In this document: positions 4,517 to 60,804 of the stretch, piece after piece
Position numbering within the stretch: the stretch's first letter is position 1
Layout: the number at the start of each line of letters is the position of its first letter
Origin: Patescibacteria group bacterium
GTDB lineage: Bacteria; Patescibacteriota; SICC01
Assembly (NCBI GenBank): GCA_040902515.1
Contig: JBBDXB010000006.1
Coordinates: 574,017-638,016 of the forward strand
DNA: 64,000 bases
Direction: 5' to 3'
Translations under genes and position numbers: made by a program
The notes under the pieces: model-generated
The model's database searches: none
Seen by the model: the letters and a program-made list of their open reading frames with translations, nothing else
Told to the model about the DNA's origin: nothing

Positions 4517-5992
4517 ATGGTTAAGCAATTTATGGACACCACGATCATTGGTCTCGGGCTCCTGCTGGCGATCACAGCCATCGTCGTACTGACCGTGCGG
4601 ATCCGGGCGTTGGCCCGGCAGGTCCGTTCCCGGGAGCTCGCGGTCAAGCGGGACCTCGGAAGAATCCGACAGATCGACCGAATGCTCCTGGCGAACCTGT
4701 CCCTCGGATACATCGCCCAAGAAGTGGCGAACGTCTTCGCCGACCACCGGGCCGTGCTCGGCGGTGCCGTCCAGCGGGCCAACCGCGACGGTACGCTCGA
4801 GGTACTGGCCGTCTCGGAGGAACTCAAGCGGATGGGAAACCGGGGGCTCGGCGTGCTGGCGCACAAGGTGCAGAGCGGCATCGAGCTGGAACGCAGCGGC
4901 TCCCTGATCGTCCGGGCCATCAACCAGCGGCAGATCATGGTGGGCGAACGGCTGGGTGACGTGGACGTGCCCGCGCTTACCCCCGGACAGGCCGGCAAGA
5001 TCCAGAAGCGTCTGGGCATCCGGGGCGTGGCGATTTATCCGGTGATGGCCAACGAGCGGGTCTACGGCGCGGTGACGTACTACCTGCGATCCCCATACGA
5101 GAGCCTGGGAGAGCGGGACAAGGAAACGCTCCAGGCGATGACCGACGGCGTGGCTGTCGCGATGGTGAACGCCAGCCTGCTCACGGAGATCGATGCGGTG
5201 AACCAGCGGCTGACCCAGGCCAACGCCGGTTTGAAACGGGCGGACGAGACCAAGGATGAGTTCGTCTCGATCGCCTCGCACCAGCTCCGCGGACCGCTCA
5301 CGGCGATCCGCGGCTACCTGGCGATGCTCGAGGATGGTGACTTCGGTGCGATTCCTGACCGCCAGCGTCCCGTCGTGGAGCAGATCTCCGAAAGCACGAA
5401 CGAGGTAATCAACATCCTGAACGACATGCTTTCCCTCTCGCGGATCAATGCCCGGCGCTTCGAGCTGACCCCCAGTCCCGTGCGGCTGGAGGACGTGGCC
5501 CGCGACGTCACCCGGGAATTCGAGTCGTTGGCCAAGAAGAAAGGACTGAAGCTCATCCTGGAGCTGCCGGACCAGACGATCGGCCAACTGAATCTCGACG
5601 GTCTCCGCATCCGCCAGGTCATCGTGAACTTCGTGGACAACGCGATCAAATACACGCAGAAGGGAACGGTGCGGGTCTCGATCGCCCAAGAAGGCGACGA
5701 AGCGGTCCTTCGTGTCCGGGATAGCGGTATCGGTATCTCGGCGGAAGACCGGCACAAGATGTTCACCAAGTTCTTCCGGGCGGATAACGCCCGGAACGTC
5801 CTGGCGTCCGGTACCGGCCTGGGCCTGTTCGTGGCCCGGCGGATCGTGGAGGCGCATGGCGGAAGCGTCATCCTGGAAAGCATTCTCGGCAAGGGAAGTA
5901 CGTTCGGGTTCCGCCTGCCGCTTCCCGCGGTACGCGGCGGCCACGGCGCCGCGTACCGTCGGTCTGCCCGGACCCCGGCCGTCGCGAGCTGA
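4517..5992 (+). CDS. Sensor histidine kinase (TM anchor, GAF-like sensor, HisKA, HATPase_c)
   Basis: TM helix IIGLGLLLAITAIVVLTV; H-box SIASHQLRGPLTAIRGYLAML; N box VNFVDNAIKYT; G1 DSGIGI; G2 GTGLGL. Start assigned to the ATG at 4517 (MVKQF) because the 4478 start would abut the divergent RR start. Confidence 0.8.
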   Translation: MVKQFMDTTIIGLGLLLAITAIVVLTVRIRALARQVRSRELAVKRDLGRIRQIDRMLLANLSLGYIAQEVANVFADHRAVLGGAVQRANRDGTLEVLAVSEELKRMGNRGLGVLAHKVQSGIELERSGSLIVRAINQRQIMVGERLGDVDVPALTPGQAGKIQKRLGIRGVAIYPVMANERVYGAVTYYLRSPYESLGERDKETLQAMTDGVAVAMVNASLLTEIDAVNQRLTQANAGLKRADETKDEFVSIASHQLRGPLTAIRGYLAMLEDGDFGAIPDRQRPVVEQISESTNEVINILNDMLSLSRINARRFELTPSPVRLEDVARDVTREFESLAKKKGLKLILELPDQTIGQLNLDGLRIRQVIVNFVDNAIKYTQKGTVRVSIAQEGDEAVLRVRDSGIGISAEDRHKMFTKFFRADNARNVLASGTGLGLFVARRIVEAHGGSVILESILGKGSTFGFRLPLPAVRGGHGAAYRRSARTPAVAS

Positions 5993-7189
5993 TTACTGCC
6001 CGATATCGAGCTTCTTGCCGCCCCGGGCGGCCGCTTTGCCTTCGGATGAACCGGATGCCGCCTCGTCTTTCGCCGCGGCCTTGGGAAGGCTGAGGACGAA
6101 CGCATTGCCGGTATTGGTGCCGGTCACCGAGAACCGGGCGCGATGCGCCTCGATGATCTGCTGGGCGATGTAGTAGCCGATACCCTCCTCGAAGCCCTGC
6201 GCGCCGACGTAATCGAAGACGTTCTGCTGCTGGTCGCGGGCCAGCGGCGCTCCCTGGTTCTCGATCCGGAACTCGACTTCGGGATCCGTTTCCTGGAGGT
6301 TGAACGAGACCTCGCTCTTCGGAGCGGATGTCCGGGCGGCGGTGTTGGCGATCATCGAAAGCAGACGCCCCACTTCCGTGACATCCACCTCGATCTCCGC
6401 GTCCGTGCCCGGTTTGCCGGCATTCAGCGTTCGTGACGATTCGGCGACCGTCGTGGCGAGCTTGTCGGTGGCCTGCGTGAATAGCTCTTTCGCGGCGATC
6501 CGCTGCTTGCGTACGGCGATCTTCTCCTCGGAGAGGGTCTCGATCCGGGCCATGTCCTCGATGATCCGGAGCAGCTTGTTGGCGCTGTCCAGGATCGTCT
6601 GTACTTTGCTGAGCGCATCCTTGGGGAGCTTCCCGGCGTCTCCGGAAAGGAGCAGGTCGGCGTAGCCTTTCATGGCGGTGATCGGTGCCCGGAGCTCGAA
6701 CGAGGAGAGGTTCACGAGGCGCTTTCGGAGTTCCTTCTCCGCCTGTTCGGTCGTGGCGTCGACCAGGACCACCACGTGGTACCCGGGCGGATAGGTCAGG
6801 GAGCGTTTGGCGGCGTAGACCGGCGTCAGCGTACCGTCCTGCGCCGTGACCGTACCCTGGCGCTTGCGTTCGGTCAGCTTGAGCGGCTTGCCGCCACCGT
6901 CTATCGAAAGCACCGTCTCGAGCGGCTGATGGAACGACGAGCGGCCTTCCCGGCCGGTCATCGTCGCAAACGACTGGTTGGCATACTCGACGGTGCCCTC
7001 CGGGTCGACCAGGGCCACGCCCTCGTCGAGGTGCTGTCCGAACTCTTCCCAGAGCTTGAAGCGGTCGGCGGCTTCCTCGGTGGTCTGCTTGATCGCGTCC
7101 TGGGCGCCGGCCTGTCGGAACAGGGAACGGATCAGCAACACGAGGGTTACGAGGAACGCGGTGGCGAAGATGAACGTAAGCGTATCCAC
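5993..7189 (-). CDS. PAS-domain histidine-kinase-like protein with degenerate catalytic motifs (phospho-acceptor His replaced by Phe); GTG start
   Basis: N-terminal TM, PAS-like region (LVDPEGTVEYANQSFATMTGRE). HisKA-like block reads NLSSFELRAPITAMKGYADLL (F where the conserved H of SHELRxPLT sits). ATPase N/G boxes are degenerate (MIANTAARTS; IENQGAPLA). Converges on the kinase at 4517-5992 with zero gap. Confidence 0.6.
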   Translation of the reverse strand: MDTLTFIFATAFLVTLVLLIRSLFRQAGAQDAIKQTTEEAADRFKLWEEFGQHLDEGVALVDPEGTVEYANQSFATMTGREGRSSFHQPLETVLSIDGGGKPLKLTERKRQGTVTAQDGTLTPVYAAKRSLTYPPGYHVVVLVDATTEQAEKELRKRLVNLSSFELRAPITAMKGYADLLLSGDAGKLPKDALSKVQTILDSANKLLRIIEDMARIETLSEEKIAVRKQRIAAKELFTQATDKLATTVAESSRTLNAGKPGTDAEIEVDVTEVGRLLSMIANTAARTSAPKSEVSFNLQETDPEVEFRIENQGAPLARDQQQNVFDYVGAQGFEEGIGYYIAQQIIEAHRARFSVTGTNTGNAFVLSLPKAAAKDEAASGSSEGKAAARGGKKLDIGQ

Positions 7190-10977: not shown

Positions 10978-11418
10978 ATGGCCAGAACGACCGAACTCAG
11001 CGTAGTCACGGCGACGGGGACGGTCGCGGAGGGTCCCGTGCTGTCGGTGACCATTCCCACGACCGACGGGGAGATCACGGTGCTGCCGGAACACGCGCCG
11101 ATCGTGTCGGTGATCCGGCCGGGCGTGATCACAACCCGCACCGAGAAGGACGAGCAGCACCTGGCGGTGTCCGGAGGATTCCTTCGGGTTTCCGGCGAAT
11201 CGGTGACCATCCTTGCCGATACCGCGGAACGCGCCGACGATATCGATCGCCAACGTGCGGAACAGGCCCGGAAACGCGCCGAGCAGGCGATGGCCGGGAA
11301 GCTCGAACGGGAAGAAGTCGCCGAGACGCAAGGGGAGCTCCAGAAGCACCTGGCCCGGCTCAGGGCCGTGGAATTGGCCGGCGCCCGCCGCCGCTCGCGG
11401 ACAAAGGATGCCCCATGA
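10978..11418 (+). CDS. atpC: F0F1 ATP synthase subunit epsilon
   Basis: Immediately follows atpD; size and beta-sandwich plus C-terminal helical sequence typical of AtpC. Confidence 0.85.
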   Translation: MARTTELSVVTATGTVAEGPVLSVTIPTTDGEITVLPEHAPIVSVIRPGVITTRTEKDEQHLAVSGGFLRVSGESVTILADTAERADDIDRQRAEQARKRAEQAMAGKLEREEVAETQGELQKHLARLRAVELAGARRRSRTKDAP

Positions 11419-33781: not shown

Positions 33782-35023
33782 ATGAGTGACCAACACCACA
33801 AAGCCAAGATCCGTAACGCCCAAGCGCGCCATCAGTCGCAGCTGTTCGGCGATGCCGCGCAGAAGCCGTCTTCCCAGGCGGCCGATACGCAGGCGCAGCA
33901 ACGTGCGGGCCACCTGACGGAAGCGGCCCGTGCTAAGGAACGGCGCCTCTCGCAAGCCGAAGAAGCGCGGTTGGCGGCACTGCGGAAACGTAACGAAGCG
34001 GCCCGGCGCAGCCATCAGACGCAGGTACCGTCGGGGCATGCTCCCGATGTGCCTGCCCAGGCGTCGCAGCCTCAATCGAAGCCGCAGGCACGCCCCGAAT
34101 CTCACGATACGCAGCCGTCTCAGCCGGCGATGCCCCGGCGCGCACCCGCTCATCCGTTACGTCAGGTAGCCGAACGGAGCGATATGGCCGCAGCGGCGCT
34201 TGAGAACATGGAGAAGCACTTGCGGGAGCAATCCCAGCAGCCCCCGGCGCCCCAACCGCCGCAGTCCCCACCGGCACCTGCTGAACCGCGGCCGCAACCA
34301 CAGCCACCGCGCCCGGCGCCGCCACAGCCACCGGAACCGGAACCGGAGCCAGAACAGCCTCCTCGGCCGCAACAACCGCCGCAACCGCAACCCCAGCCGG
34401 CCGCACCCCCGCCCCCCCAAGGCCGTGACCGGCCGGCCCCGTCCGGCCAGCCTCGCCCGGCCCGCCGGGCACCTAGTCCGGAGGAGCTCGACCGTCTGCT
34501 CCGGCAGATGGCAGCCCGCAGCCGCACCCGCCCCGGGGCCGGTGCGCAGCAGCCGCGCCCGCCGATGTCTCCGCGCGGCATGTCCGGCGCTCCCGAGGGG
34601 AATCCGGACGCTGCTCCCGTCGAAGCTCCGCCTCCGCCGCCCGAGCTGGTCGAGCAGGAAGCGCGACAGGTCGAGAAGTCCGCGGAAATCCTGAAAGAGC
34701 TCAAGGCCCGCGAAGTCCAGGCGCAGCAGGACATCACGCCGATTCCGCAGGCCGACCAGACCCGGGCCCGGGAAGAAGCCGTCGAGGCGAACCTCCCGAT
34801 CCGTACCCAGGCGAACTCGATCGCCTCGGGGCCGCTCCATGACGCGATCGAGCAGCTTCAGGTGGCGATGCGCGCCCATGACCCGGTCGGACAAGTCCAT
34901 GGGGCGAACTCCGTCCAGCGTCAGATGCCGCACCATCCGCTCTATGATCCCGAGGCTGCCAAACCGGACGCCGCGCCGTCGGACACGCCGCCGGGTGATG
35001 CACCGCAGGAGGGGAAGCAATGA
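33782..35023 (+). CDS. Pro/Gln-rich intrinsically disordered protein (413 aa), translationally coupled to the downstream VirD4-like ATPase
   Basis: Low-complexity PQPPQPQPQPAAPPPP tracts, no TM or signal peptide; stop overlaps the next start (ATGA at 35020). Confidence 0.6.
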   Translation: MSDQHHKAKIRNAQARHQSQLFGDAAQKPSSQAADTQAQQRAGHLTEAARAKERRLSQAEEARLAALRKRNEAARRSHQTQVPSGHAPDVPAQASQPQSKPQARPESHDTQPSQPAMPRRAPAHPLRQVAERSDMAAAALENMEKHLREQSQQPPAPQPPQSPPAPAEPRPQPQPPRPAPPQPPEPEPEPEQPPRPQQPPQPQPQPAAPPPPQGRDRPAPSGQPRPARRAPSPEELDRLLRQMAARSRTRPGAGAQQPRPPMSPRGMSGAPEGNPDAAPVEAPPPPPELVEQEARQVEKSAEILKELKAREVQAQQDITPIPQADQTRAREEAVEANLPIRTQANSIASGPLHDAIEQLQVAMRAHDPVGQVHGANSVQRQMPHHPLYDPEAAKPDAAPSDTPPGDAPQEGKQ

Positions 35024-37437
35024 ACCCCAACTTGCCGGCGCGTGCCCAGCGCATGCTCGACCAGCTCTCCAAGGGCGACAAGAAGGTCGTCAAGAAGCTG
35101 GAGCGGGTACTGCTGGAGGTCCGGGTGCCGCGGCACCGGCCGAAGGAAGGTGAGCGGCAGCAGGAACTCAAGGAGCAGCTCGGCGTGGCGGAGCAGCTCT
35201 TCGCCTCGCTCCATTCGATCTACCGCGGCGGCATGACTTCCCAGCTCTTCGAACAAGACGCGATCAGTTTCGAGGTCGCCGCGCCGGGCGGCGAGATCGG
35301 CTTCTTCGTAGGCGTGCCGCTGCATCTCCAGAGCCTGGTGGAGAAGCAGATTCACGCCTACTATCCGGACGCCGAGATCACCCCGGTGCCGCTCTACAAC
35401 ATATTCGCGCGGCAGGGCTTCGTGGCGGCGACCTCACTGGCGCAGCGGAAGCAAGCCCGCTATCCGATCAAGACCTATCAGGACTTCGAAGCCGACCCGA
35501 TGGCCGGCATCGTGGGATCGCTCGCCAAGCTCGGTCCCGACGAAGGCGCGGCAATCCAGATCATGATCGCTCCGACCGGTCACCGCTGGCGGAAACAAGC
35601 GCAGTCCTACGCCCGGCAGTACGCCCAGGGGAAGTCGGGTACCGGCGGCTCGGCCTCGGGCAAGGTCTTCGGCGGCATCTTCAAGTTCGGCGGCGACCTG
35701 CTCTCCGCGGCGACGACTGATCCCAAGCAGGATGCCCAGAAGCCGGCGCAGGGCTCCGACGAACCGCGGAAGCTGACCCAAATCGAGGAGCAGATGGTCG
35801 AGAAGATCGAGACCAAGGCCGGCTCGCCGGGCTTCGAGGTGGTGATCCGGATCGTTTCCGCCGCCGCCGACAAGGGTGTCGCGGAACTCAACCTCCAGCA
35901 CCTTACCCGGTCGTTCCAGCAGTACGACGCGCCCGACCTCAACGGGTTCAAGGAGATCGTCTCGCCGGTGGCCTCGCAGGCGCGGTTGGTCACCCGGTAC
36001 GTCTTCCGTGAGCTTTCCGGAGCGGGGAAGAAGATGATCCTCGGTCCGGCGGAGCTGGCCTCGATCTGGCACCCGCCGAGCGAGGGCATCGAGACGCCGC
36101 ACGTCCGCTGGCTCGGTGCCAAGACCGCCGCGCCGCCGAGCAACATGCCGCGCGACGGCCTGCTGCTCGGCTACAACCAGTACCGTGGCCAGGCCACCGA
36201 CGTCCGTCTCAAGGAAGACGACCGCCGCCGTCACATGTACGCCGTCGGTAAGACGGGCATGGGTAAGTCGGTGTTCCTCGAGAACATGATCCTGCAGGAC
36301 ATCCGTGCCGGCCGGGGCGTGGCGGTGATCGACCCGCACGGCGACCTCGCCGAGAAGGTCCTCAGCAAGGTTCCGCGCGAGCGGGCCGAGGACGTGGTCT
36401 ACTTCGACCCCGGCGACGCGGAACGGCCGATGGCCTTCAACATGCTCGACTATGCCACGCCGGAGCAGAAGGACTTCGTGGTACAGGAGACCGTGGGCAT
36501 CTTCTACAAGCTCTTCGGCGAAGAGATGATCGGGCCGAAGTTCGAGCACTGGACGCGGAACGGCATCCTGACCCTGATGGAGGACAAGGAGACCGGCGCG
36601 GTGCTCTTCGACCTGCCGCGGCTCTTCTCCGAGCGCGAGTTCGCCGCCCAGAAGATCGCCAAGGTGAAGGATCCGGTCGTGAAGTCCTTCTGGCAGCGTG
36701 AGATGGCCCAGACCTCCGACTTCCATAAGTCGGAGATGCTCGGCTACTTCATCTCCAAGTTCGGCCGGTTCATCACCAACGAGATGATGCGGAACATCAT
36801 CGGCCAACCGAAGTCCGCGTTCGACATCCGGCAGGTGATGGACGAGGGCAAGATCCTGATCATGAACCTCGGCAAGGGCCGGGTCGGCGAGATCAACTCA
36901 TCGCTGCTCGGCATGATCGCGGTCAGTAAGATCCAGATGGCGGCGATGAGCCGGGTGGACACGCCGGAGCACAAGCGGAAGGATTTCTACCTCTACGTCG
37001 ACGAGTTCCAGAACCTCACCAACGAGGAGTCGATCCAGTCGATCCTCTCCGAGGCGCGGAAGTACCGCCTGAACCTGACGATCGCCCACCAGTACATCGC
37101 CCAGCTCGACGAAAAGGTCCGCGACGCGGTGTTCGGGAACGTCGGGACGGCGGTGAGCTTCCGGGTCGGCGCGGACGATGCCGAGTACCTCGAGAAGCAG
37201 TTCGAGCCGGTGTTCGACGCCCACGACCTCCTGAACCTCGACAAAGCCAACTGCTACGCCAAGCTGGTGATCGACGGGCTCTCCACCCGGGCGTTCAACA
37301 TGAAGACCTACTCGCCGGAGCCGGTGACGCAGGAGGATGCCGAGATCGGCGAGGCGATCCGGAAGCTCTCGCGGCTCAAGTATGGACGCGACAAACAGCT
37401 GGTCGATTACGAGATCCGGATGCGGAGCAACCTGTGA
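35020..37437 (+). CDS. VirD4/TraG/TraD-like type IV secretion coupling-protein-type ATPase (805 aa) with N-terminal domain of unknown function
   Basis: Walker A VGKTGMGKSVFLENMIL, VIDPHGDL, Walker B/TraM-recognition-like FYLYVDEFQNL, C-terminal arginine-finger-like region. No VirB-type partners nearby. Confidence 0.65.
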   Translation: MNPNLPARAQRMLDQLSKGDKKVVKKLERVLLEVRVPRHRPKEGERQQELKEQLGVAEQLFASLHSIYRGGMTSQLFEQDAISFEVAAPGGEIGFFVGVPLHLQSLVEKQIHAYYPDAEITPVPLYNIFARQGFVAATSLAQRKQARYPIKTYQDFEADPMAGIVGSLAKLGPDEGAAIQIMIAPTGHRWRKQAQSYARQYAQGKSGTGGSASGKVFGGIFKFGGDLLSAATTDPKQDAQKPAQGSDEPRKLTQIEEQMVEKIETKAGSPGFEVVIRIVSAAADKGVAELNLQHLTRSFQQYDAPDLNGFKEIVSPVASQARLVTRYVFRELSGAGKKMILGPAELASIWHPPSEGIETPHVRWLGAKTAAPPSNMPRDGLLLGYNQYRGQATDVRLKEDDRRRHMYAVGKTGMGKSVFLENMILQDIRAGRGVAVIDPHGDLAEKVLSKVPRERAEDVVYFDPGDAERPMAFNMLDYATPEQKDFVVQETVGIFYKLFGEEMIGPKFEHWTRNGILTLMEDKETGAVLFDLPRLFSEREFAAQKIAKVKDPVVKSFWQREMAQTSDFHKSEMLGYFISKFGRFITNEMMRNIIGQPKSAFDIRQVMDEGKILIMNLGKGRVGEINSSLLGMIAVSKIQMAAMSRVDTPEHKRKDFYLYVDEFQNLTNEESIQSILSEARKYRLNLTIAHQYIAQLDEKVRDAVFGNVGTAVSFRVGADDAEYLEKQFEPVFDAHDLLNLDKANCYAKLVIDGLSTRAFNMKTYSPEPVTQEDAEIGEAIRKLSRLKYGRDKQLVDYEIRMRSNL

Positions 37438-37513
37438 CCGTCGCGCCCGAAGGACCGTTTATGGTGAGTATACCCGCATGACACGTACACGCCTAGGGGC
37501 TATAATACGGCGT

Positions 37514-37942
37514 ATGACTGACGTAAGAGATATGTACAAGTTCGTCCAGTACGTTGACTCGGACGAATACAATCCTGACCCAAAACAGTTCAAGGAACCG
37601 CACGAAGCTGAGCAATACTGTGCAAAGCACTACGCAGAGAAGTTGGGGATTACGCAGTACGAAGCTACGAAAATTCTTAACAATGCCACGATCGAGAGTC
37701 GCCAGTATGCAAAGGTAATCGGCGATGATCCGCGAGGGTACAAGCTGGAGATAACTGTTGGTCCTGGCAGAACTGGCGTTCACCTTATATCAAAGACGTT
37801 TGGAATTCCGTTAGGTTTGTGGGACGAAATCCAAAAAGAATACGACACTACTACGAGAACGATTGTGAGTCTTGTTGTGGGATTACTAGGCGGCGGCAGC
37901 TTCGCTACACTCGTCATCTTTGCTTTCTCGATATTCAACTAG
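37514..37942 (+). CDS. Hypothetical small protein with C-terminal TM helix, encoded in a lower-GC island
   Basis: ORF MTDVRDMYKFVQYVDSDEYNPDP...; C-terminal IVSLVVGLLGGGSFATLVIFAFSIF; TATAAT box 8 nt upstream of ATG (possible leaderless transcript); GC content clearly below the flanks. Confidence 0.5.
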   Translation: MTDVRDMYKFVQYVDSDEYNPDPKQFKEPHEAEQYCAKHYAEKLGITQYEATKILNNATIESRQYAKVIGDDPRGYKLEITVGPGRTGVHLISKTFGIPLGLWDEIQKEYDTTTRTIVSLVVGLLGGGSFATLVIFAFSIFN

Positions 37943-37945
37943 CGA

Positions 37946-38485
37946 ATGCCTAGCTCGGTTGGTACGATAACTCCGCTAATGCCTAAGAAGAAGCCAGCCA
38001 CAGAAAAAGAGAAGACTATCATCGGGGCGGTTATCCTTGTGGTGATCTTCGTAGTAGGTACAACGGCCTGCACAGGAGTAAGCAACGATGAAAGCGATAC
38101 GAACGACACGGCAAACAATCAGACCAGTGAACCTACTAAAGAACCCCAGAAAAACGAAGAGTCTTTAGTCGATAAGGTCGAGGCAGCATTGGATAAATTG
38201 GGCGAAGGTATGAAACGCGAGCTGGCTTCAACGAGTCCTGACGGCTATCAAGGCGACATAACCAGCGTTGAACCAGCCATAGGCGATGATACCGTTAAGG
38301 TTAATGTATCGACTCGCTTTGAGGACTCAGGCGATGGAATTGATGGTGGGCAAGGCATAGCTCGCAGGATATTCAGCAATATCTGTCTTGATGTTCCAGA
38401 GCTTGGAAGTCTGTATGTAGTAAGCGGCTCTGGATTGGAAAGTAAGTCCGTATATCGCAGTCAAATACCTGGCTGTAAGCAGTAG
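37946..38485 (+). CDS. Putative lipoprotein or secreted protein (179 aa) in the lower-GC island
   Basis: N-terminal hydrophobic segment IIGAVILVVIFVVGTTAC followed by Cys (lipobox-like), acidic/Thr-rich linker. Confidence 0.5.
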   Translation: MPSSVGTITPLMPKKKPATEKEKTIIGAVILVVIFVVGTTACTGVSNDESDTNDTANNQTSEPTKEPQKNEESLVDKVEAALDKLGEGMKRELASTSPDGYQGDITSVEPAIGDDTVKVNVSTRFEDSGDGIDGGQGIARRIFSNICLDVPELGSLYVVSGSGLESKSVYRSQIPGCKQ

Positions 38486-38528
38486 TATATGAGTGTGGCA
38501 GAAAAAGAATCCAACTTCGACAAGCTGA

Positions 38529-39374
38529 TTAAACTCGCTTCGCAGCCCGTTCAATCAGGACGGGGTAAACCAGCACGTTCCGGAGGTTATAGCGGAAAAC
38601 GAACTCGTCCACGTAAGTCTGCAGGTACTTCGGGGAAACGGCGTGGTACGTCCCGTTAATCGACCGCTTTAGCTGGCTCCAAAATCCCTCAATCGAGTTC
38701 GTGTGGATATTCCCTCGGACGTATTCCTTTTCCACGTGCTTGATGATTTTCCGAGATACGGTGGTGCGCCGGTAAATCGCGCTTTCGTCCGTGTGGAGTT
38801 CCGCGTCGTCTGACACGCTGGCCTTGATGAACGGCGTGGCGTTCGTGACGTTCGCCTCGGCGACCCACGCCTTTGCCTTGCCCTTTCGTTCGGTAGCACC
38901 GATCACCGCCGTCTTGTTCGTCCACTTGTTAGCTTGTCCTTTAATCCGTCCGCCGATAAAGGTTTCATCGGCTTCAACGATACCGTCCAGCTTGTCGGCG
39001 TTCTGTTCCATGAGAAGCCTGACTTGTTTGGCGATCCGCCATGCGGTCTTGTATGTGCAACCTAGCTGGCGTTCCAGTTCCTTAGCCGATACCCCGTTCT
39101 TTGAAGTCGAGAACAGGTAGATAGCGTAGAACCAGTTTTTTAGTGGCGTGGCTGACTTGTGGAAAATAGTACCGGCCAACGGGTGCAGCTGATGACCGCA
39201 GTGCATACAGGAATACGCCTTACGCCCTTTCAGCTTGAAGAACTTGGTATCCACGACCCCGCAGCCAGGGCAGGACTTTAATGCCCCGTAGCGGTTCTGA
39301 AACACCTCGTCCAAGCACGCCTCATCTGAGGGATACTGCTTGTTGAAGTCGGCAATGGTGAATCGCTGTTTCAT
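38529..39374 (-). CDS. IS1595-family transposase (N-terminal zinc-ribbon + DDE domain)
   Basis: CPGCGVVDTKFFKLKGRKAYSCMHCGHQ zinc ribbon; WYAIYLF...GVSAKELERQLGCTYKTAWR HTH; DDE region IVEADETFIGG...HTDESAIY...SIEGFWSQLKR characteristic of ISXO2/IS1595 transposases. Confidence 0.85.
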   Translation of the reverse strand: MKQRFTIADFNKQYPSDEACLDEVFQNRYGALKSCPGCGVVDTKFFKLKGRKAYSCMHCGHQLHPLAGTIFHKSATPLKNWFYAIYLFSTSKNGVSAKELERQLGCTYKTAWRIAKQVRLLMEQNADKLDGIVEADETFIGGRIKGQANKWTNKTAVIGATERKGKAKAWVAEANVTNATPFIKASVSDDAELHTDESAIYRRTTVSRKIIKHVEKEYVRGNIHTNSIEGFWSQLKRSINGTYHAVSPKYLQTYVDEFVFRYNLRNVLVYPVLIERAAKRV

Positions 39375-39433
39375 ACTCCCAGCCTACACGAACGCATACG
39401 TGTTGTCAAGGGATAGTTACCCCGTTTATCCCC

Positions 39434-50730: not shown

Positions 50731-50804
50731 TCGGGGATCGTCTAATGGTAGGACGCCAGGTTTTGGTCCTGGAAATCGGGGTTCGAATCCCTGTCCCCGA
50801 GCCA
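50731..50804 (+). tRNA. tRNA-Gln (anticodon TTG) with encoded CCA
   Basis: Acceptor stem tcgggga/tccccga (U1-A72), anticodon stem ccagg/cctgg with loop uuUUGgu, T-loop ggttcgaatcc, discriminator G then CCA. Confidence 0.8.
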
Positions 50805-50821
50805 TGCATACCGAACGCGCC

Positions 50822-51301
50822 ATGCCCGAGAAGAAACTCATCGTAGTCTCGTTCTTCGAGGACCTGGAGCCGGGGTACCGGTTTCCGGCCGGTGACTGGC
50901 CGGTACATCTGACGTTGCTCCTCCCGTTCGGCATCGAAGAAACATCGGTCAGTGACCTCGAAGCGAGGCTCGCGGATGTCTTCGCGCGGCAGGATCCGGT
51001 CGAAGTCGTATGCGAAGAAGCGGTCCAGTTCGGCCCGCAAGGGAATACCCCCGTTACCACCGTCCGTCGCAGCGCCGAGCTGCAGTCCCTCCACGATGCG
51101 TTGCTGGAGCTCATCGACGAACGTGGCGCCTCGTATGATCCGCGATGGTCGGGCGGGGAATACCGTCCCCACGTGACCCGTCAAGCCCGCGGCGCGATGG
51201 AGCCGGGAGAATCCGCGGAACTGCGCTCAGCTTCTTTGCTTGATTACGAGGAGACTACACGGACCATTCGGCGGACGTACCCGTTCGGTGCGGGTTCCTG
51301 A
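50822..51301 (+). CDS. 2H phosphoesterase superfamily protein (LigT / 2'-5' RNA ligase-like)
   Basis: Two H-x-T-x motifs (PVHLTLL and RPHVTRQ) at the expected spacing; starts 18 nt after the tRNA-Gln CCA. Confidence 0.6.
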   Translation: MPEKKLIVVSFFEDLEPGYRFPAGDWPVHLTLLLPFGIEETSVSDLEARLADVFARQDPVEVVCEEAVQFGPQGNTPVTTVRRSAELQSLHDALLELIDERGASYDPRWSGGEYRPHVTRQARGAMEPGESAELRSASLLDYEETTRTIRRTYPFGAGS

Positions 51302-51315
51302 CGTCTGTAACAGTT

Positions 51316-51343
51316 TTGATACACACCTTAACCAAGGTACAAT
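51316..51343 (+). promoter_or_regulatory. Promoter TTGATA-N16-TACAAT driving the structured leader of paralog 1
   Basis: ttgata 51316-51321, 16-nt spacer, tacaat 51338-51343. Confidence 0.55.
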
Positions 51344-51349
51344 CTAACG

Positions 51350-51497
51350 TTCATTAACAAATCGCTACTTGCGGCCGTAGCGTTGAGGATTCGAGTTTCG
51401 TTTCTTCACCGCTACGGCTAGTACAGCGTGGTATCCCATCAACGATGGTGAATCTGGGGCCCGATCGGGTGAGGGATTTGCCGGAGAGGAGCCAGCA
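51350..51497 (+). ncRNA. Candidate cis-regulatory structured 5' leader (copy 1): stem GCCGUAGCG...CGCUACGGC followed by conserved UAGUACAGCGUGG, a second hairpin and a G-rich SD
   Basis: Homologous to the leader at 59991-60144 (shared gcggccgtagcg ... cgctacggctag-a-agcgtgg), with a compensatory U-G change in the stem of copy 2. Confidence 0.45.
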
Positions 51498-52145
51498 ATG
51501 GCTAGGAAGGACCCGTCAGATATCGTGAGCGGAGCGGGGATGCTGACCAGCATCTTCACCAAGCTCGACAAGGCCGTGACCGCGGCCGGAGGCAGGCCCA
51601 AGGACATCCACCGGCTTGCCACCGACGAGGGTGACGCGCTGCTCACGCAGTTCGCCGAGCTGCTCGTGGTCAAGCAGGCCGGGGACAAGTACGTGATCAC
51701 CGTCAACTACGGCGAGCAGCTCAAGACGCTGATCGTCGACGGCGGTTACAACTGGGTCAACGACTACTACGAGGGCCAGACCTGGGACGACTGGAAACAG
51801 CAGGACGGAGTGACCCCTGTAATGTTCCCGTCCTGTCGCACGGTCGAGACTGAGGCCGTCGTCGTCCATCTCGACCGCTACGCCGAGACCGGCGAGGTGC
51901 TGGTGGAGCTCGACTTTCGGGGTCTCCGGCCCGCCGACGTAGCGGAGCTCTTGAGCTTCGGAGTCGCACACCCTGAGGTCCAGCGCGAGTTCCGGATCAT
52001 CGAGCTCGGCTCGATCTTGGGGGACCCGTATGGCAGCCGCTACGTGGCGTCTCTGTGGAGCGACTCCGGCCGGCGCTACCTCGACCTCTACTGGTACGAC
52101 GACCGGTGGGCTCCGGGCTGCCGGTTCCTCGCCTTCGGCAAGTAG
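51498..52145 (+). CDS. Hypothetical protein, paralog 1 (215 aa) of the protein at 60145-60804
   Basis: Shared features with paralog 2: MAR(K/R)...GAAG...AV..GG N-terminus, VTV(N/D)Y, GLRPA(D/N)(V/M)AEL, aromatic-rich C-terminus. Confidence 0.6.
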   Translation: MARKDPSDIVSGAGMLTSIFTKLDKAVTAAGGRPKDIHRLATDEGDALLTQFAELLVVKQAGDKYVITVNYGEQLKTLIVDGGYNWVNDYYEGQTWDDWKQQDGVTPVMFPSCRTVETEAVVVHLDRYAETGEVLVELDFRGLRPADVAELLSFGVAHPEVQREFRIIELGSILGDPYGSRYVASLWSDSGRRYLDLYWYDDRWAPGCRFLAFGK

Positions 52146-52203
52146 CCGCACTTGGGCCTTTGGGCGTTTGGCACTTCGTGCCCCTGCCCCTTGGACCCTC
52201 CGC

Positions 52204-52235
52204 ATTTTGACCTGCCCGGCCTCGGTGCCGGGCAG
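52204..52235 (+). terminator. Hairpin with perfect 12-bp stem (gacctgcccggc / gccgggcaggtc) after paralog 1
   Basis: Read from sequence; no strong U-tract, so may be a processing or stability hairpin rather than an intrinsic terminator. Confidence 0.45.
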
Positions 52236-52318
52236 GTCACCTCCGGATGCAGACAGACTCGTCGATTGTATTCAGAAACCCTGGATCTTGCCCGAATCTC
52301 TGTTAGCACACCGGCACC

Positions 52319-52365
52319 GAAGCGCTCACGAAAACACCCCGTTTTCACCCGAGCGCTTCTTTTAA
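52319..52365 (+). terminator. Rho-independent terminator (aagcgctc ... gagcgctt + cttttaatt)
   Basis: 8-bp stem enclosing a nested hairpin, followed by a T-run. Confidence 0.6.
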
Positions 52366-52451
52366 TTGGACGTATCAAGCGAGAGGGCTTTTATGTTGAG
52401 CCAATGGTCAAGGAATCCTGATTTCCGCGCCATTTCTGCTTAAATAGGACC

Positions 52452-59935: not shown

Positions 59936-59990
59936 GTCACCGGCATGGCGACGTGTTTGATAATTATTGTGGTTGTGGTACTTTTAGTGG

Positions 59991-60144
59991 TTCCTTAACA
60001 GTTGCTGACAGGTAAGCGGCCGTAGCGCCAAGGGTGTGATATCTCATTCCCGTGGCGCTGCGGCTAGCAGAGCGTGGCAGATAAGCCCTAGGCCTGGATG
60101 CCGTTTAGTCCAGGTAGGGGGACATCGCTACAAGGAGGTACCAC
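59991..60144 (+). ncRNA. Candidate cis-regulatory structured 5' leader (copy 2), downstream of promoter TTGATA-N16-TACTTT (59957-59984)
   Basis: Contains gcggccgtagcg ... cgctgcggctagcagagcgtggca, a cctgga...tccagg hairpin and an aaggagg SD; homologous to 51350-51497. Confidence 0.45.
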
Positions 60145-60804
60145 ATGGCTCGCCGTAAGGCAGAGTTCGTCGGAGCGGCCGGGACGGTCCTTGAGATCAT
60201 CAAGGCACTTTCCCAGGCGGTGCTCGACAGCGGGGGTTCGGAGGAGGACCTACGCCGGATCATCAGGGAGGAGCCGCTGCGTAACCGGATCGCCGGAATG
60301 CTGGTCGATTGGTCAAGCTCCCGGTACCTGGTCACGGTGGATTATCGCCGTGACTTGGGGCACCTCGCTCCCGACGGTTACGCGGGCTGGGCGGGCTTCT
60401 GGTCCGACTGGACCGCGCTGGACGGCAGTCCGGTGCATCAGGAGAACAAGGTAGTCATCACCGATGTCGTGCTGGTAAAGCTCGAGCTTTCCGACGATGA
60501 TCGCGATGACTTCGACCGACCCAGGCCTGATACTGCGAAGGTGCTCAAGCAGCTCGACCGGCAGGGCTTGCGCCCCGCCAACATGGCGGAGTTGTTCGCG
60601 TTCCTCAAGGAGTATTCCGACGTGCTGGAGAAGGGTCCGTTCGAGGGCGCCGTTGCACTGGGAGCGACTCGGAATGGGGATGTTGCCCTGTTCTGGGACA
60701 AAGCGTCCCCCGATGGTCATGGTTACTTCGATGGCGTTCGCCCTGATGATGCCCACTGGCCCGAGCACGTCGGCTTCCTCGCCGTTCCCGTCGAGCAGTC
60801 CTAG
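60145..60804 (+). CDS. Hypothetical protein, paralog 2 (219 aa) of the protein at 51498-52145
   Basis: See paralog 1; strong SD aaggagg upstream. Confidence 0.6.
   Translation: MARRKAEFVGAAGTVLEIIKALSQAVLDSGGSEEDLRRIIREEPLRNRIAGMLVDWSSSRYLVTVDYRRDLGHLAPDGYAGWAGFWSDWTALDGSPVHQENKVVITDVVLVKLELSDDDRDDFDRPRPDTAKVLKQLDRQGLRPANMAELFAFLKEYSDVLEKGPFEGAVALGATRNGDVALFWDKASPDGHGYFDGVRPDDAHWPEHVGFLAVPVEQS

Follow-up and report, generated by a model that had tools for sequence, protein, structure and literature searches.

Diversity-generating retroelements (DGRs) are the main reverse transcriptase (RT) systems of bacteria of the Candidate Phyla Radiation (CPR), where they account for ~80% of the RTs (PMC8632793). 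Next to nothing is known about the function of the DGR variable proteins of these bacteria or the timing of their production. On the target side, the cis elements known for DGRs, the initiation of mutagenic homing (IMH) sequence and a GC-rich inverted repeat, are located at or past the 3' end of the variable region (VR) (PMC3240598, PMC5758913). In the DGR of Bordetella phage BPP-1, the spacer RNA found 3' of the template repeat (TR) corresponds to the RT-10 motif (PMC5737381). Here we describe a structured leader RNA present upstream of two paralogous genes, hereafter called ORF A and ORF B (ORF, open reading frame), in a 64-kb stretch of DNA (the window) from an ultra-small bacterium, represented by a 'Patescibacteria group bacterium' metagenome-assembled genome (MAG). 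The two ORFs belong to a large CPR family of DGR variable (target) proteins with a C-type-lectin (CLec) fold. The leader belongs to a new modular family of structured RNAs found on such genes, composed of a long hairpin, P1, and a three-helix stack, P2.

Like the BPP-1 spacer RNA, the leader is a structured RNA of a DGR locus, but it is positioned 5' of the target gene, is kept by orphan targets and has no Rfam match to any RT motif. It shares with the IMH and its inverted repeat the presence of a GC-rich hairpin at a DGR target gene; however, P1 and P2 are located ~650 nt upstream of these elements and display RNA-type G.U pairing, whereas the known elements act on DNA. The leader also resembles the orphan cis-regulatory RNA motifs and riboswitch candidates collected by Weinberg et al. 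2017 (PMC5737381), in that it is a covarying, multi-helix 5' untranslated region (UTR) of a single gene family, abuts the Shine-Dalgarno (SD) sequence and harbours conserved unpaired purines, with no known ligand. Unlike these motifs, it has no match in Rfam 15, is tied to CPR DGR variable-protein genes and is modular, with P1, P2 or both modules present.

Rfam 15 comprises 4227 families, among which are riboswitch classes and the motifs RT-1 to RT-19. At the gathering threshold, its only matches in the window are two tRNAs, and searches with both leaders at E values up to 10 returned chance small nucleolar RNA and microRNA matches alone. Similarly, 20 related loci gave tRNAs alone, and one locus searched at E values up to 5 (L042; related loci are hereafter designated by such labels) gave chance matches. 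These scans rule out a known RNA family, in line with an initial inspection of the DNA made without database searches (hereafter the sequence-only reading), which could not place the leaders in any riboswitch class. The leader adds a well-supported new RNA motif from a lineage poorly represented in Rfam. Full-text literature searches brought up no account of a conserved leader 5' of DGR target genes, although their coverage is incomplete and this is absence of evidence only. Ribosomal-protein operon leaders, which bind proteins and are autoregulatory, and the stabilizing hairpins of the ompA 5' UTR are possible analogues. They would share with the leader a stem-loop with conserved internal loops that directly precedes the SD and may form the very 5' end of the mRNA. 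The leader has no sequence or Rfam similarity to them.

In both copies, ~150-190 nt of non-coding sequence with the same architecture precede the ORF (Table 1). Two sequence blocks are common to both, GCGGCCGTAGCG followed by CGCT[A/G]CGGCTAG[T/C]A[C/G]AGCGTGG[T/C]A, exactly as the sequence-only reading had described. Folding of both leaders was compared with that of dinucleotide shuffles, giving z scores of -4.2 to -5.4, with 0/200 shuffles folding as well. The first structured element is P1, with its conserved YAGC/GCUR core followed by a CGUGGYA tail. The sequence-only reading had viewed one difference between the two copies as a compensatory U-G pair, but it is a one-sided A-to-G change that produces a wobble pair and is not compensatory. 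What that reading had taken for an enclosed, completely diverged loop is actually the distal extension of the P1 stem, in which pairing is maintained between the window copies by true double changes (U-A to C-G, G-C to A-U and A-U to G-C). The second hairpin and the SD that it had noted are indeed present in both leaders; it missed that, of all parts of the leader, this second hairpin (P2) is the one that recurs most widely, ahead of the first.

A covariance model of P1 plus the tail, called R1, found no match in the 64-kb window besides the two leaders. Outside the window, it matches L002, L003, L004-6, part of L086, and L088. The latter, from Saccharibacteria, is not part of the R1 seed; it scores 57 bits and has a C-G instead of a U-A pair in the conserved stem. 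Among the seven sense-strand members of the P1 subfamily, 134/143 cells are paired, with changes on both sides in 11/21 pairs. Long hairpins of 18-29 bp occupy the P1 position in many other loci, and a wider alignment of ~25 loci on an AGC:GCU anchor shows a downstream RAG and covarying neighbouring pairs; this anchor was imposed on the alignment, and in a few loci it is set at the wrong AGC. The functional structured RNA proposed from the two copies thus recurs, with compensatory changes, upstream of homologues in other genomes, including that of the non-seed L088, and covariance-model searches of related genomes yielded further instances upstream of family genes.

The two copies are 8.6 kb apart in one genome, and might be a neutral leftover of a segmental duplication devoid of function. 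This is scarcely credible, given that the proteins retain just 33% identity (BLASTP, over 165 aa, E 2e-18), that the cores of the two leaders hardly differ, and that the same modules with compensatory changes are found in unrelated CPR lineages. The relatedness of the two genes noted in the sequence-only reading is confirmed by this comparison, and the recent duplication that it had envisaged as a refutation is at odds with the divergence of the proteins and with the conservation of the leader across CPR phyla.

The P2 consensus derived from the upstream regions of distant homologues reads GGY-RAG-YCYN-GGG-[7-9 bp hairpin, loop often CAUGGUG]-UGAG-GGGY-RA-GCC. A covariance model generated from 25 instances, R2, gave 43 matches at E <= 1 in ~680 kb searched on both strands. 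Every match is in sense orientation, with a family gene immediately downstream, and P2 is found in ~40 loci in all. It revealed no further P2 copy in the 64-kb window, and none beside a TR or an RT gene. The distance between the end of P2 and the ATG is 10-32 nt in 27/27 metagenome matches measured, to be compared with 12 nt in leader 1 (P2 end at 51485) and 15 nt in leader 2 (60129). Overall, 90.5% of P2 cells are paired, vs 75% in shuffles and 32-57% in slide controls, and there are 93 double-change cells vs 29 in shuffles, with double changes in 12/15 pairs, counts that lean toward the model as the alignment was fitted to R2. Because of this bias, we built an independent model, R3, from 26 distant loci, leaving out the window and its close relatives. 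R3 detects P2 of leader 1 with 26.7 bits (E 5.4e-5), its sole window match below E 1, and recovers L005, L001, L003 and L002 at 37 to 17 bits (20.9 for L003 and 17.4 for L002). The three stacked helices of P2 are separated by internal loops rich in purines; the GGG/UGAG and RAG elements and the CAUGGUG hairpin loop are kept across phyla. Judged by eye, the P2 internal loops do not seem to fit the canonical kink-turn or loop-E consensus.

The strand on which these structures form bears on whether they operate as RNA. P1 has the form of a long inverted repeat in which AGC...GCT blocks are conserved, and R1 also scores the minus strand, more weakly (30-35 bits vs 82-84), as might be expected if the element acted as DNA, for instance as an operator, cruciform or recombination site. 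In P2, however, G.U cells outnumber A.C cells 88 to 12, and 90.5% of the cells are paired as sense RNA vs 74% as the complement. P1 contains G.U pairs as well, and bases paired in this way would be mismatched in DNA and on the opposite strand. The tail is asymmetric, P2 is strand-specific, and the position is always between promoter and SD, making a DNA element highly improbable. Because of the excess of G.U over A.C cells, we conclude that the sense-strand RNA is the folding species. The leader is therefore an RNA structure of the sense strand, located between a promoter-like site and the start codon, that recurs in many CPR lineages with compensatory changes.

The two modules are found together or separately. 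In addition to the window copies, L002, L003, L005, L088, L010, L021, L026, L029, L057, L063 and L067 have both P1 and P2. L042, L044, L045, L053, L059, L077 and L040 have P1 only, and L013, L008, L046, L034 and L025 have P2 only, which in these leaders begins 8-12 nt past the -10 element.

The assignment of the genes to a DGR variable-protein family results from their homologues. A metagenome scan with the family alignment yielded 80 loci, and the order target(+), TR(+), avd(-), RT(+) is found in >30 of them. In 11/13 tested loci, the last 135-145 nt of the gene are copied ~330-480 nt downstream, and nearly all TR-VR mismatches correspond to a template A replaced by any base in the gene copy. 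In L002, which harbours a 65%-identical homologue with the same leader as leader 1, 17/17 TR-VR differences are at template A. In L004-L006, the family gene is followed by genes for bAvd and an RVT_1 reverse transcriptase. Over 2.3 kb, the only differences between these three loci are 11 substitutions, which fall in a 52-nt part of the VR (gene nt +493 to +544), and the columns that vary among them also vary among the proteins P0002-P0007; this localized hypervariation is thus that of homologues of the window genes. No TR was found on the L005 contig by searches for direct repeats, adenine-tolerant Smith-Waterman alignment or an ungapped scan, and the TR of L004-L006 must lie off the contig. 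In these three loci, the avd gene is on the minus strand and shares 10 nt with the end of the target gene.

The AlphaFold2 model of ORF A (predicted local distance difference test score of 81.5) matches C-type-lectin and formylglycine-generating-enzyme-like folds, among them that of TvpA, a DGR variable protein of Treponema. Neither protein gave a match in Pfam or PHROGs, nor did a PDB search with their sequences. The sequence-only reading, which had called the genes hypothetical, missed that they encode DGR variable proteins. A profile search identified 7,283 cluster representatives that match the family, 4,529 of them at E <= 1e-10, and ORF B scores 226 bits with the family profile. We also identified 23 loci in species-representative genomes, belonging to Saccharibacteria, Uhrbacteria, Paceibacterota, Moraniibacteriota and further CPR groups, apart from two contigs that come from a single MAG with the label uncultured Gammaproteobacteria. 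An earlier view of a tiny family, from a word-indexed protein search that gave just 10 and 1 matches, was discarded, since the relatives found with patterns and profiles number from hundreds to thousands. In other genomes, paralogous variable-protein genes are found in tandem or close by, each with its own P2, such as those of L101 (2992-3679 and 3982-4501) and that of L100 (5553-6192), on the same contig as L066. The L100 paralogue (5575-6192) has a lipoprotein-like signal sequence.

No TR was detected in the 64-kb window by the three approaches used for L005, and tblastn found neither RT nor Avd in it. With none of the three cassette components (TR, avd and RT) in the window, both copies are orphan or remote targets. 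A VR/TR pattern scan of species-representative genomes, a collection without the window genome, gave 0 matches. The VR equivalent of ORF A aligns with the TR of L002 (Table 1), and the homology between the two loci stops 250 nt before that TR, with the YgjP gene next in the window. L003 is a further orphan target, with rpsO 3' of its gene. The leader motif flags DGR-type variable proteins even where no RT is present, as in the window. The GC-rich inverted repeat past the ORF A stop, which is kept in L002 (10704-10734) and L088, could be a terminator or else the inverted repeat that is known 3' of VRs; it is a better candidate for the latter than the leader is.

These orphan targets also bear on whether the leader takes part in the retroelement mechanism itself, by marking the target transcript or locus for the RT-Avd complex or by forming the 5' end of a long target-plus-TR template transcript. 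The family is tightly linked to DGR cassettes, no sigma-70-like promoter was found in the VR-TR spacer of 10/11 cassettes, and a UACUUG motif is common to a box of the target leaders (CUACUUGC in leader 1) and to the start of a conserved RNA 5' of the TR. Nevertheless, the orphan targets without TR, avd or RT nearby (ORF A, ORF B and L003) keep an intact leader, the P2 model finds no copy beside a TR or an RT gene, and the known DGR cis elements are at the VR 3' end, not upstream of the gene (PMC5758913). We consider such a role improbable.

The RNA located directly 5' of the TR is a second conserved structured RNA, found in 32 loci (e.g. L042 1523-1634, L063 6836-6945 and L002 11007-11115). 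It has a 12-bp closing helix around two hairpins, with compensatory changes in 16/25 pairs (11 loci), and opens with the UACUUG box that many target leaders also have. No Rfam family matches it, and no copy of it was found in the 64-kb window. We considered TACTTG as a -10 element, which would set the transcription start inside the covarying helices of this RNA. The TR-proximal RNA may bear on cDNA priming in these atypical cassettes, in which avd is on the opposite strand.

The sequence-only reading had placed a TTGATA-N16 promoter in front of each leader. That of leader 1 has 10/12 matches to the sigma-70 consensus and is the sole site found by a consensus scan of 51200-52450; that of leader 2 falls below the threshold of the scan, with a -10 (TACTTT) matching at 3/6 positions. 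As judged from its distance to the -10, the GUUCAUUAAC box probably represents the 5' end of the leader 1 RNA. Boxes of the GUUCUUURA type are also present 5-7 nt past the -10 in L002, L017, L027, L011 and L024. They are complementary to the SD, with no evidence of covariation, and a helix between the 5' pyrimidine box and AAGGAGG is predicted in a related subgroup. The predicted probability that the SD is unpaired is 0.16 in leader 1 and 0.44 in leader 2. A GUGG:CCAC pairing is predicted in leader 2 and L003; the possible pairings of the leader 2 tail come from the minimum free energy (MFE) fold and from a consensus fold with L003 and L002. The CUACUUGC box recurs 5' of P1 in many related leaders and is missing from leader 2.

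In the same region of leader 1, CGCUAC (51363-51368) duplicates the P1 3' arm and could pair with GUAGCG (51377-51382), generating a small alternative hairpin in competition with P1. This site (51363-51382) was picked up by the terminator scan on the minus strand; it has one mismatch in L002 and is missing from leader 2. There is no sense-strand terminator-like site in either leader, and P1 is followed by CUAGUACAGCG rather than by U residues; with no U tract, a terminator or attenuator was ruled out. A potential upstream ORF in leader 1 (ATG 51445) was dropped, as it is not conserved in leader 2.

On balance, we favour the view that each region is one copy of a 5' leader RNA, structured and modular, that is specific to genes for one CPR family of DGR variable proteins and acts in cis on translation or stability. 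P2 would be its core and would bind a protein or a small ligand through its conserved internal loops, and access to the SD would be governed by P1, its tail and the 5' pyrimidine box. The latter three elements could, in addition, shield the mRNA at its 5' end. Translation or stability of a hypervariable binding protein would in this way come under control. The leader offers a first handle on the regulation of one large DGR target family, with >7,000 cluster representatives, and the internal loops of P2 lend themselves as bait in the search for a ligand or a binding protein.

Several points weigh against this proposal, beginning with the lean of the P2 covariation counts mentioned above. Transcription starts are putative, as they were placed from promoter-like hexamers alone. 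The SD-occluding helices have no covariation support, and because of this a switch mechanism is hypothetical. No ligand or binding protein can be named for the leader, and the conserved AGC/GCU blocks in a perfect helix could mark protein recognition of double-stranded nucleic acid. Among 63 unique upstream regions, P2 is present in 22 and P1 or P2 in just 31, so the leader is not obligatory for the family. Finally, P2 of leader 2 is not recovered by R3, scoring 4.7 bits (E 6) with filters off. Leader 2 has 70% identity with the L003 leader over 296 nt, is homologous end to end with the L003 and L002 leaders, and has in common with them the GAU-AAG-CCCU...GGGG architecture; its assignment to the family, which derives solely from this homology, is accordingly tentative. 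Leader 1 is thus a well-supported member of the family and leader 2 a divergent one.

The main rival is a passive role, in which P2 or P1, at the extreme 5' end, would shield the mRNA from decay that depends on this end, or in which the perfect P1 helix of 20-25 bp would be an RNase III site, with no ligand or switch involved. P2-only leaders begin so close to the -10 that P2 is essentially at the transcript 5' end, P1 is a near-perfect helix of 18-29 bp in the loci examined, and modules are present or absent without loss of the gene, all features compatible with a stabilizer. A stabilizer needs no conserved internal-loop sequence, yet GGG/UGAG, RAG and the CAUGGUG loop are maintained across phyla, and the AGC/GCU core and the CGUGGYA tail are likewise conserved. 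We therefore regard a purely passive element as unlikely. At the other end, the leader might be a signal-responsive RNA, i.e., a riboswitch or a protein-responsive switch, that gates the hypervariable protein. Because no separate VR-TR promoter was found in complete cassettes, it might perhaps also gate read-through transcription of the template RNA in those cassettes, in which case diversification itself would be switched on by a cue. This scenario is quite doubtful.

Table 1 Features of the two leaders, of the genes they precede and of the hypervariable relatives (positions are those of the window unless a contig is named)
Feature	Position	Strand	Description
Promoter-like site, leader 1	51316-51343	+	-35 TTGATA 51316-51321, 16-nt spacer, -10 TACAAT 51338-51343
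5' box GUUCAUUAAC, leader 1	51349-51358	+	starts 5 nt past -10; counterpart of the GUUCUUURA box of related leaders
CUACUUGC box, leader 1	51365-51372	+	directly 5' of P1; no covariation evidence
P1, leader 1	51373-51419	+	basal stem GGCCGUAGCG/CGCUACGGCU, distal stem UGAGGA..UCUUCA; MFE z -5.4; R1 81.9 bits
Tail AGUACAGCGUGGUA, leader 1	51420-51433	+	conserved in alignments; UGGUAUCC predicted to pair with SD region GGAGCCA in MFE fold
P2, leader 1	51444-51485 (helices 51447-51482)	+	GGU-GA-AUCU-GGG-[GCCC GAUC GGGU]-GAG-GGAU-UU-GCC; R2 36.8 bits
SD region GGAGAGGAG, leader 1	51483-51491	+	6 nt 5' of ATG 51498
ORF A	51498-52145	+	215 aa; DGR-type variable protein: N-terminal helical domain, C-terminal CLec fold
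VR equivalent in ORF A	52007-52142	+	80% identical to L002 TR (11117-11252); most differences at template adenines
GC-rich inverted repeat GACCTGCCCGG...CCGGGCAGGTC	52209-52238		64 nt past ORF A stop; no U tract after
Promoter-like site, leader 2	59957-59984	+	TTGATA-16-TACTTT; -10 matches 3/6; below scan threshold
5' box GUUCCUUAAC, leader 2	59990-59999	+	aligned with leader 1; UUCCUU complementary to AAGGAG, putative pairing
P1, leader 2	60018-60065	+	GGCCGUAGCGCCA-GGG-UGUGA ... UCAU-CCC-UGGCGCUGCGGCU; MFE z -4.2; R1 82.6 bits
Tail AGCAGAGCGUGGCA, leader 2	60066-60079	+	GUGG(C) could pair with GCUAC 60127-60131 or CCAC 60141-60144 beside start codon
P2-like module, leader 2	60077-60129	+	GAU-AAG-CCCU-AG-[GCCUGGAU..GUCCAGGU]-A-GGGG-GAC-AUC; R2 24 bits (module was R2 seed)
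SD AAGGAGG, leader 2	60132-60138	+	6 nt 5' of ATG 60145
ORF B	60145-60804	+	219 aa; divergent paralogue of ORF A
Locus L004	1291-1950		hypervariable contig
Locus L005	1653-2312		hypervariable contig
Locus L006	1639-2298		hypervariable contig

ORF A is 100% identical to the hypothetical protein WD603_00025 of the Patescibacteria MAG, and ORF B corresponds to WD603_00060 of the same MAG and is 100% identical to P0011. With these locus tags at 51.5 and 60.1 kb, the NCBI contig may start close to 50 kb of the window. Third-position GC is high in both (0.89 for ORF A and 0.77 for ORF B), and their codon bias is that of real genes. The neighbouring genes have housekeeping functions and include dnaX, dnaB, recR, corA, cysS, tRNA-Gln, LigT, YgjP, typA and a DnaJ protein gene. 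No similar DNA or protein was found among 50,697 phage records, and only 1 relative among 2.9 million viral contigs. A phage or plasmid island was ruled out by the lack of phage-record matches and by this chromosomal context; because of its housekeeping neighbours in a Patescibacteria MAG, we consider the locus as chromosomal rather than phage-borne.

The window is 63% GC, which is unusually high for a CPR genome, and nearly all its genes are on the + strand. Just 5' of leader 1, tRNA-Gln(UUG) (50731-50804) overlaps by one base the predicted start of the ORF for a LigT-type 2'-5' RNA ligase (50804-51301). Finally, a low-GC patch (37300-39400, 51-55% vs 63% overall) contains a minus-strand ORF (38529-39374) that by eye resembles an IS1595-type transposase and is preceded by an 805-aa ORF with a P-loop motif (35020-37437). 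This patch may be an inserted mobile element.

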